Shown here: piece after piece, positions 52,217 to 54,621 of the stretch
Layout of the letters: each line of letters begins with the position of its first letter
Position numbering within the stretch: position 1 is the first letter of the stretch
Source: Polyangiales bacterium
GTDB lineage: Bacteria > Myxococcota_A > Polyangia > Polyangiales > Ga0077539
Assembly: GCA_044229975.1 (NCBI GenBank)
Contig: JBGARZ010000001.1
Location: 800,001 to 864,000 of the forward strand
Reading direction: 5' to 3'
Length of the DNA stretch: 64,000 nucleotides
The notes under the pieces: generated by a model
Databases searched by the model: none
What the model was told of the DNA's origin: nothing
The model's input: only the letters and a program-made list of their open reading frames with translations
Program-made: the position numbers and the translations under genes

Positions 52217-53890
52217 ATGCCCACCCCGATGCTGCCGAACGTGCTGCTTCGTCCTACCGTCGCGACCCTCACCGAGCTCCGCGCGAGCGGTCCTGCGGCG
52301 GAGTCGATCGCGTCCCTGGTGGTCGACGCCGACGTCGCGCCCGACGCGTGCGGGCTGCCGCGCTCGGTGGCGTTGGAGGCGTTCTGGCCGCTGGTGGTGG
52401 CCGAGGAGGGCGACGTCGCGCGCATCGTCGCGTCGCGCGCCGTGATGGTGCGGCGGGCCGATGGGGATGGTGTTCCGGTCGGGCTGCGGGCGTACCTCGT
52501 GAGCGGCGAGGCGGTGCGGGTGCACCCGCGGGTCGCGGCGGTGATCGCGGACGGTCGCGAGACACACGACGTCGCGGTGCGCGGCTTGTGGTCGGACGCG
52601 GCGGTGGCCGACCGCGCGGCGATGGCACCATGGCGGGCGCCCACCGACGGAGCGCCGACGATCAGCGCAGGGGCGCGGCTGGGCCTGTGGGAGCTGACGC
52701 GCGACGGAGCAGTCGACGACGCGCGGGTCTACGCGAGCGACGACGAGCTCATGGCCGCGTGGGAGAGCGGGCTCGTCGCGCACGACACGCTGGTGCGCGC
52801 TCGCATCGATGGGCGTCGTGGCGTGACCACGGCGGGGCGGGTGTGGTTGTGGCGCGCGCTGCCTGCGGGCGTGCGATTCGCGACGGTCGATCGGGCCATC
52901 GACGCCGTGGCGCTGACGGAGGTGATCGCCGCGTTGTGCGACGGGCTCGACGCCGAGGCGCGGTGGCGGCGACGGGCGGCGCTCGACGACGCGGGTTGGC
53001 GCTGGCTGGCGCGCAGCGGGTTCTCGGTGGGCGTCGACGACCTGCGGGCGAGCGACGGGCGGGACGCGGCGATGGCGGAGACGACGGAGCGTGTGCGAGG
53101 GGTCGAGCAGGCGTTTGTCGACGAGCTCATCACCGACGGTGAGCGGTACAACAAGGTCATCGACGTGTGGTCGGGGATGGCAGCGCGGTGCGAGCGCGCG
53201 TACGCCGACGTGCGCGGCGACGGCGTGATGTCCTCGTGGCGACGCGCCGGGGTGGTGCCCGGAGCCCAGGACGCGCGACGTTTGCTGGACCACTACGGAT
53301 CGGTCACGAAACCCTCACGGGAGCCGTATGAGCGACCGGTGTTCGGGTCGCCAGCGCGGGGATTCGACGCACACGATATGGCCCTCGTCGCGACCACGGA
53401 GCGAGCGGAGACCGTGCGGGCGGCGGCGCGGCTGGACGACACGCGGAAGGTGGTTCGGGCCCTGGCGCGCAGCCTCGCGACGCAGCGGGTGACGGTCGAC
53501 GACTGCGGGACGACGCGCGGCGCGCTGGTGTGTCCGTGGACCCAGGAGGAGCGCGATCGCATCGGGACGAGCCGTCCGCCCGAGGGCCGATGGACGGCGG
53601 GGCGCGTGCTGGCGGAGGACGTTCGGTGGGGCGACGGCGTGCTCATCGCGGCGGCCGGGACGATGCTCGACGCCAGGGCACTGCTGCTCGTGGGCAACGC
53701 CCGCATCGACTTCGTGCGCGTGCGCTCGCCGCGCACCTGCGAGGCATCGGGAGGCGTGTGCGCGCGGTGCTGGGGACACGACGAGACGGGCGCCTTTCCC
53801 ACGGTGGGCGAGGCCATCGGCGCGAAGGCGCTGCTCACGCTGCGGCGCACGCTCGCGAAGGCGAAGGCCGTCACCTTCCACATCTGCTGA
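52217..53890 (+). CDS. Degenerate RNA polymerase beta' (RpoC) paralog, part 1 (catalytic barrel to trigger loop), active site lost
   Basis: Colinear RpoC motifs: [115 protein letters not shown] is absent. Confidence 0.88.
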   Translation: [557 protein letters not shown]

Positions 53891-53910
53891 CGACGAGAGG
53901 AGCACGAGCG

Positions 53911-54621
53911 ATGGAACACCAGACGCAGTCTGACGGGAGGGTCCGGTTTCGCGGCGTCGTGGCCGAAGAGCAGATCGACGAGGTCACGAGCCTCTCGTGG
54001 TCGAAGGCGGCGACCGATGGCTACATCGAGATCGTCGGAGCCGACTGGCGGGTCCTGCAACGGGTCGCGGTGCGAACGGGTGACCGGATCTTCGTCGAGG
54101 ACGGGGCCAAGGTCGCCGCGGGGGCACGGATCGCCTACTACAGCCATGAGCAGTACCGCGACCGCCCCTTCGCCGATCGGCCCAGCGGCGCGGCCCGGCT
54201 GGCGGATCTGCTACGGGCGCATCACCCGGATCGCGCGGCGGTGCTCACGCCCATCGCCGGGACGGCGAAGCTGGATACCGTGGGCGCCGACGTGCGCGTG
54301 CGCGTGGAGGCCGACGACGGCGCGTCGTGGCAGCGGGTGGTGGGCAGGCGTCACTCCTTCTGGCTGCGGGACGGCGATCAGCTCGACGTCGGTGACGTGC
54401 TCACCGATGGAGAGCGCGACCACCACGAGCTCCTCGCGCTGTGGGGGCGCGAGCGCTTCGAGGCGCACCTCTTCGAGGAGATTGACCAGGTCTTCACGGC
54501 CGCGCGGCTCGCCGTCGCGCCCAACGTGCTCGACCTCGTCACGCGCGAGGCCGTCGTCGACACGCCCGACGGGCCGCGGCTACGCCCGCTGCGGGAGTTT
54601 CCCGACCGCAGTGAGCGGTAG
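53911..54621 (+). CDS. Degenerate RNA polymerase beta' (RpoC) paralog, part 2 (SI3-like barrel, second trigger helix, jaw)
   Basis: GAGGAG SD at 53897. GDRIFVEDGAKVAAGARIA (SBHM-like), SGAARLADLLRAHHPDRAAVLTPIAG, LRDGDQLDVGDVLTDGERDHHELLALWG and HLFEEIDQVF resemble GGLPRVADLFEAR.PK..AILAEISG, GDVISDGP..PHDILRLRG and YIVNEVQDVY. Confidence 0.85.
   Translation: MEHQTQSDGRVRFRGVVAEEQIDEVTSLSWSKAATDGYIEIVGADWRVLQRVAVRTGDRIFVEDGAKVAAGARIAYYSHEQYRDRPFADRPSGAARLADLLRAHHPDRAAVLTPIAGTAKLDTVGADVRVRVEADDGASWQRVVGRRHSFWLRDGDQLDVGDVLTDGERDHHELLALWGRERFEAHLFEEIDQVFTAARLAVAPNVLDLVTREAVVDTPDGPRLRPLREFPDRSER

Follow-up and report, generated by a model that had tools for sequence, protein, structure and literature searches.

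A split, clampless β′-like gene pair without the catalytic motif of RNA polymerase in a Polyangiales genome: a possible non-catalytic mimic of the secondary-channel and jaw face

Few bacterial proteins are as conserved and as thoroughly studied as the β′ subunit of RNA polymerase (RNAP), whose gene, rpoC, is normally present in single copy. Naturally split largest subunits occur in cyanobacteria and plastids (rpoC1 and rpoC2) and in archaea (A′ and A″), and the multisubunit-type RNAPs of phages and mobile elements, such as the split β′ of jumbo phages and YonO, retain the NADFDGD motif. Catalytically dead β′ paralogs are, to our knowledge, absent from the textbook picture. Paralogs of other core subunits are encoded away from the main copy, as the second rpoB of Nonomuraea. 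Two α subunits have been described in Francisella (PMC3294249). The present analysis deals with two adjacent open reading frames, ORF1 and ORF2, that resemble consecutive parts of β′ and are located in a stretch of 64,000 nucleotides (nt) from a Polyangiales bacterium (assembly GCA_044229975.1, contig JBGARZ010000001.1, positions 800,001 to 864,000 of the forward strand); this whole stretch is referred to as the window, and positions are counted from its first letter. The features of the pair are the following.

52217-53890, + strand: ORF1, 557 amino acids (aa), β′-like N-terminal half, C-terminus ...TFHIC; it contains a double-psi β-barrel remnant, the funnel and rim helices, the F-loop/bridge-helix region, the second zinc (Zn) site and the first trigger-loop arm
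52301-52588, + strand: remnant of the formerly catalytic double-psi β-barrel (ORF1 residues ~29-124, including CGLPRSVA), placed by the β-strands of an AlphaFold model and by alignment to β′
52544-52570, + strand: degenerate catalytic loop IADGRETHD (ORF1 residues 110-118), which replaces NADFDGD
53060-53197, + strand: predicted rim-helix hairpin (ORF1 residues 282-327), which carries a 15-residue motif
53279-53476, + strand: equivalent of the F-loop and bridge helix (ORF1 residues 355-420), placed by β′ alignment and a modelled helix at 385-420
53501-53770, + strand: region of the second Zn site (ORF1 residues 429-518), with D429, C430, C508, C515 and C518
53804-53887, + strand: first trigger-loop arm (ORF1 residues 530-557) up to the loop tip TFHIC, aligned to ...MRTFH of β′
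53891-53910, + strand: intercistronic gap of 20 nt, with GAGGAG preceding the ATG of ORF2
53911-54621, + strand: ORF2, 236 aa, β′-like C-terminal half that stops short of the last β′ region; it begins with a β-rich trigger-loop insertion (residues ~1-78), continues through the second trigger-loop arm and the jaw, and reaches the start of the conserved C-terminal region

The pair shares with canonical RpoC its homology over approximately residues 438-937 and 1108-1259 of the E. coli protein, the predicted fold, the four cysteines at its second Zn site as well as the rim-helix motif. On the other side, the clamp with its Zn finger and the C-terminal end are missing, neither the Asp triad nor a bridge-helix or trigger-loop consensus is left, and no rpoB gene adjoins. 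As in rpoC1/rpoC2 and A′/A″, a largest subunit is distributed over two adjacent genes, although the halves in those systems are catalytically competent and part of the only RNAP of the cell. The place of the cut is also different, since the cyanobacterial rpoC1/rpoC2 junction falls inside ORF1 (residues 74-199 match positions 420-556 of the rpoC1 model TIGR02387, and residues 253-539 match positions 32-317 of the rpoC2 model TIGR02388), whereas the cut in the window is at the tip of the trigger loop. The pair resembles the Francisella α and Nonomuraea rpoB paralogs in being encoded away from the main copy of a core subunit; those paralogs are full-length and taken as parts of RNAP, unlike the truncated and split pair without catalytic residues found here.

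Both ORF1 and ORF2 are homologs of β′ in sequence, and their predicted fold is β′-like. The NCBIfam rpoC model TIGR02386 (1147 positions) matched ORF1 over model positions 397-886 (E value 1.8e-39, 135.3 bits) and ORF2 over positions 912-1036 (9.6e-10, 36.9 bits), with neither of them reaching the equivalog cut-off of 963.5 bits, and a scan against Pfam-A gave matches below threshold only. In HMMER comparisons with PDB sequences, residues 91-556 of ORF1 corresponded to residues 438-937 of E. coli β′ (7.8e-35), and ORF2 corresponded to E. coli β′ 1108-1259 (residues 61-213, 7.7e-9) and to Thermus β′ 1250-1376 (residues 88-215, 6.7e-11). Around the CGLP motif, 14 residues of ORF1 stand opposite 14 of β′. 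AlphaFold models built from family alignments had a mean predicted local distance difference test (pLDDT) of 86.5 and a predicted template modelling score (pTM) of 0.78 for ORF1, and values of 80.6 and 0.58 for ORF2. When these models were compared with the PDB by Foldseek, the top matches of both were β′ chains, with an E value of 9.8e-38 and a query TM-score (TMq) of 0.77-0.80 for ORF1, and 7.6e-15 and about 0.43-0.48 for ORF2, the low TMq of the latter being presumably due to the several domains of its model. The rim-hairpin helices of ORF1 (residues 282-301 and 307-327) fall in blocks with pLDDT 91-98, and the β-rich N-terminal domain of ORF2 matches cyanobacterial rpoC2 models in their trigger-loop insertion region.

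Alignment to β′ indicates that the Asp triad and the bridge-helix and trigger-loop consensus have been lost, and that the second Zn site has been retained. DFDGD is absent from ORF1. At this site 12 residues of ORF1 align without gaps to 12 of β′ (HMMER), and the three catalytic Asp land on G113, E115 and H117. Orthologs have ADGRPLLD, ADRRELHD or AGRRDSID at this position, so that no metal-binding triad is conserved. The consensus residues of the bridge helix and trigger loop are substituted in the pair when aligned to E. coli β′; the long helix of the bridge-helix equivalent is retained, with its canonical consensus gone. The patterns [GS][AG]RKG and GEP[GA]TQ, written from recall for these two elements, were found neither in P0010, which represents the clade of the window, nor in any of the 57 dead representatives described below. 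The alignment ranges leave out the N-terminal third of β′, with the clamp and Zn finger, and its C-terminal end. Among the retained residues, C430, C508, C515, C518, G260 and G382 are invariant in a 57-sequence alignment of relatives, E372, R396, D429 and R503 are near-invariant in it, and D429 is invariant in a 15-sequence alignment.

The same genome contains a canonical rpoB (C27:4449-8558) next to a canonical rpoC on another contig, C27 (1833 and 1480.8 bits, respectively), and a whole-genome profile search has revealed no second rpoB. An earlier note on this DNA, made from the letters alone, had described a miniaturised and split RpoC paralog, and its description agrees with these results. 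The RpoC motifs follow in the right order across the two frames, as the ordered β′ alignments confirm far beyond chance; NADFDGD is replaced by IADGRETHD exactly at 52544-52570; the bridge helix and trigger loop are diverged; the N-terminal clamp with its Zn finger and the C-terminal region are missing; and the four structural Zn cysteines, now seen to be invariant in 57 relatives, are kept. Its placement of the pair outside any rpoBC operon, with no rpoB nearby, is also right, the only rpoB being the one beside the canonical rpoC. The checks that it had proposed gave confident models whose best PDB matches are β′ chains, a single-copy canonical rpoBC elsewhere in the genome, and a significant profile match to NCBIfam TIGR02386, though not to Pfam-A.

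The pair belongs to a family of dead β′ paralogs that is apparently undescribed. When 1.84 billion cluster representatives were searched with a profile, the 150 best hits comprised 57 dead proteins, in which DFDGD and the motifs of bridge helix and trigger loop are lacking together, 85 that looked canonical and 8 mixed ones, mostly fragments. The 57 dead representatives have 349-1454 aa and hence include near-full-length dead β′ paralogs, yet most family members keep only the part from the funnel and rim helices through the jaw, with barrel and clamp absent. They are found mainly in genomes labelled Polyangiales or Polyangiaceae, where databases name them either hypothetical protein (in metagenome-assembled genomes of these two groups) or, automatically, β′ subunit. 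In phylogenetic trees the dead paralogs form long branches outside a canonical β′ clade, within which the genome's own β′ groups with Myxococcota. The earlier note knew of no described chromosomal system like this one; no description of dead or extra rpoC paralogs was found in the open-access and bioRxiv full texts searched, but the pair is not unique, as it belongs to a large and diverse family.

Close relatives of the pair were found in public data: eight orthologs of ORF1 (65-99% identity, 543-564 aa) and seven of ORF2 (51-82% identity, 229-236 aa), and for six ortholog pairs the longest contigs of the two genes are equal in size (38491, 11634, 43639, 4974, 16717 and 30656). No close ortholog was detected in the species representatives of 30 same-family, 200 and 400 same-order and 400 same-class genomes. 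A scan of genome contigs with ORF1 kept 80 loci from many phyla, none of them a close ortholog, which have 24-30% identity and read as canonical rpoC; a scan of metagenome contigs with ORF2 gave two loci, both weak, and no DNA of an ortholog. In phage and plasmid records canonical rpoC alone was found, and the scores in a protein atlas search did not exceed 0.83 and are leads only.

Near-full-length β′ paralogs (901-1389 aa) with degenerate catalytic loops such as FRVDGDGGQ and FDAGFNGEQ are also on record (P0083, P0107, P0112, P0121, P0140, P0160, P0164 and P0169). The Ala+Arg content is lower in several of them (0.13 in P0160 and 0.17 in P0112), and dead β′ paralogs may thus occur beyond Polyangiales.

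Homologs of β′ that are shortened, fused or split and stand apart from rpoBC also occur among the phage-type RNAPs and at a further locus, L169, observed in a 13.6-Mb genome of the same order (G381). This locus (4429-10266, - strand) consists of a single ORF of about 1945 aa that fuses β-like and β′-like parts in a 63% G+C stretch. Its GRYGNKG and FNADFDGD motifs are intact, the NADFDGD motif being lost in the window protein, and the sequence has the appearance of an additional RNAP, separate and catalytically competent. The window protein scored 155-157 bits against cellular β′ and 74 bits against this fusion. In a second genome of the same order (G124, locus L170), a β-like and a β′-like piece adjoin.

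The split at the trigger-loop tip recurs within the family. In ten loci with available DNA the position is identical, an ORF1-type gene that ends in ...H(I/V)(G)C, with ...RVIC (G112) and ...HIGGGAP (G016) as variants, being followed by an ORF2-type gene; the ORF1 part is further broken in two of them. At the related loci the two genes abut or overlap by 4-7 nt, versus the 20-nt gap of the window, and in other family loci both parts are fused into one protein of about 800 aa. The ending ...H[IVL](G)C is also present in 19 of the 57 dead representatives. A single gene divided by an assembly or sequencing frameshift, as the different frames of ORF1 and ORF2 and the short gap could suggest, is consequently highly improbable: the same split residue recurs in the ten loci of different genomes and in those 19 representatives, ORF2 has its own ATG behind GAGGAG, and two metagenome contigs from two runs span the junction without gaps and with two listed differences each, a third contig having none.

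In the same genome a second locus of the family (G000:C2:113038-114434; 8038-9434 in L142) is visibly disrupted. An N-terminal piece of 113 aa and a remainder of 361 aa stand in different frames, and the locus has lost about 180 residues, among them the rim-helix region. This copy has the appearance of decay, in contrast to the intact ORF1 and ORF2. The earlier note held that the pair fits selection for a fold without catalysis better than random decay, and it proposed a comparison of orthologs with the ratio of non-synonymous to synonymous substitutions (dN/dS). Several results agree with this reading. The eight ORF1 orthologs are collinear, the sole internal length difference being a 4-aa deletion in one of them, and their conservation is blocky rather than uniform; both frames are undisrupted in the window, and no frameshift occurs among orthologs down to 65% identity. 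This intactness is the strongest argument against neutral decay, to the extent that indels would be expected to accumulate. In one metagenome contig two compensated indel pairs leave the frame of ORF2 kept. The start of ORF1 at ATG 52217 is consistent with the N-termini of the orthologs. The codon-position G+C content (third position 0.90 and second position 0.57 for ORF1, like the neighbouring genes; 0.89 and 0.47 for ORF2) has the coding periodicity of the real genes in the window, whose overall G+C is 72%.

The dN/dS part of that comparison gave a divided answer. It was carried out with our own Nei-Gojobori script on relatives with available DNA, which lie outside the clade of the window. 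A related fused pair had a dN/dS of 0.19 over 808 gap-free codons (neighbouring genes 0.02-0.18), and selection is evident in it; a related split pair, with 0.66 for the ORF1-type and 0.70 for the ORF2-type gene (neighbours 0.22-0.49), looks relaxed. The claim of the earlier note stands on the collinear orthologs, the invariant Zn ligands, the β′-like models and the conserved split, and is weakened by one related pair under weak constraint. A decaying, functionless rpoC duplicate, with reading frames left open only by the scarcity of stop codons at 72% G+C, is considered improbable. It would agree with the long spurious ORFs that are common in the window, with the relaxed split pair and the broken second copy just described, and with the patchy distribution and the lack of a listed RNA run given below. 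Against it stand the eight ORF1 and seven ORF2 orthologs free of frameshifts, the Zn ligands invariant in 57 sequences, a split point common to lineages that are merely ~30% identical, the periodicity of ORF1 and the blocky conservation.

With respect to function, ORF1 and ORF2 are tentatively read as the halves of a conserved, clampless β′ paralog without catalytic motifs that would serve as a non-catalytic mimic of the secondary-channel and jaw face of RNAP, titrating a factor or an inhibitor. The earlier note had already suggested an RNAP mimic, in the form of a decoy, an assembly modulator or an anti-phage sponge. The two products would be made together and may reassemble into one β′-like body, as the corresponding parts of β′ do. 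The gene pair would be kept by selection in the clade of the window, and the body would act by binding instead of transcribing, which is suggested by the funnel/rim-to-jaw part that most members keep and by the lack of a second rpoB in the genome. The ligand would be a factor or inhibitor that normally docks on the secondary-channel/jaw face, its identity being a guess. This face is favoured because it is the common core of the family, most members of which have neither barrel nor clamp. The rim helices have a role in Gre and DksA binding, inhibitors that target the RNAP jaw or secondary channel exist, and the host group is known for natural products directed against RNAP. More speculative, although possible, is the extension of this proposal to a whole family of dead β′ pseudo-subunits, from near-full-length proteins to split minis, which Polyangiales-type bacteria would maintain as decoys or as alternative, non-catalytic partners of the transcription machinery that could, for example, soak up secondary-channel factors, antibiotics directed against RNAP or phage inhibitors.

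Several results weigh against the mimic. The motif at the rim tip, through which secondary-channel factors would dock, is near-invariant across the family in its 15 residues but varies within the clade of the window, where the barrel remnant is conserved; among the most conserved blocks of the eight orthologs are residues 38-52, 56-70, 78-92, 94-108 and 118-132, all of the barrel remnant. Docking on β fits this pattern at least as well. No conserved partner gene that would name a ligand is found among the neighbours, no biosynthetic cluster naming one is present at the locus, and no anti-phage defence family of PADLOC-DB matched ORF1, ORF2 or six neighbour proteins (E ≤ 0.01). The distribution is patchy: close orthologs were not found in the species representatives of eight other genomes of the genus, and any locus of the family, including distant members of ~30% identity, is found in 13 of the 31 same-family genomes, this one included and G102 being counted partly through its canonical rpoC. 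On the side of maintenance, the relaxed dN/dS of the related split pair is joined by the 47 differences listed for short metagenome contigs of the window's clade, which by hand count fall 22, 16 and 9 at codon positions 3, 1 and 2, a weak skew, and by RNA runs, none of which is listed as containing the stretch, which appears in DNA metagenome contigs only.

The conserved barrel leads to one alternative, in which a dead β′ stand-in docks on β, or on the α2β intermediate, through its barrel remnant, the resulting inactive complex resembling RNAP and serving to store, sequester or modulate core subunits. Barrel and clamp make most of the β contact in RNAP. In favour of such docking, the barrel-remnant blocks are conserved in the window's clade despite the loss of catalysis, and the predicted fold superposes on β′ within RNAP structures; but most members are without barrel and clamp, so that this would not be a family-wide mode of action, and a dominant-negative subunit would be costly. 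We consider it unlikely. Equally doubtful is a scaffold of β′ origin that would have nothing to do with RNAP or its ligands and would have a role of its own, such as a structural one or the binding of nucleic acids. The absence of conserved neighbours and of any link with transcription genes agrees with it, as do the long branches and fast evolution, but nothing supports it positively, and the parts that are conserved are, by alignment to β′, those lining the secondary channel and jaw in RNAP. On balance, models and alignments support a fold that was kept while catalysis was lost; the function as a mimic of the secondary-channel and jaw face is plausible, and its mechanism is a proposal only.

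A conserved, split and clampless β′ that has no catalytic residues would amount to a naturally occurring pseudo-enzyme form of RNAP. If it binds ligands or subunits of RNAP, transcription would be regulated or shielded in a new manner, and if the family does consist of decoys, bacteria would have a so far undescribed layer of RNAP control or protection. A ready-made soluble secondary-channel/jaw module for structural work would follow.

The neighbours of the pair are genes for a 2-oxoglutarate/Fe(II) (2OG-Fe(II)) oxygenase, a divergently transcribed pirin, a small ORF3 and a carboxylesterase. A scan of the locus for promoter and terminator consensus sequences gave no sites. In the comparison of synteny with genomes of the same genus, the carboxylesterase gene alone is in common, in other contexts. 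The small frame next to ORF2 is the following.

54628-55158: ORF3, starting 7 nt past the end of ORF2; a small protein without family match whose N-terminus is hydrophobic

As a partner of the pair ORF3 was rejected, its two homologs (58-70% identity) being on contigs unrelated to those of the ORF1/ORF2 orthologs. A link with the copy number of Gre factors was likewise discarded, none being visible: all 31 same-family genomes hold 1-6 genes with a Gre domain, whether or not the dead β′ family is present in them. The genome of the window has five genes with a GreA/GreB C-terminal domain (C38:265796, C19:6677, C2:9234, C18:9524 and C32:1106647).

Upstream of the pair, the stretch 48000-52000 of the window has a G+C content of 0.675, versus ~0.72; it holds the 2OG-Fe(II) oxygenase gene (50307-51083) and, upstream of it, an ORF of 403-417 aa without Pfam match. 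Just downstream of the carboxylesterase gene, at 56899-57060, a repeat of ~150 nt is located that occurs in at least 15 places of the genome in both orientations, and it looks like a small palindromic repeat element.

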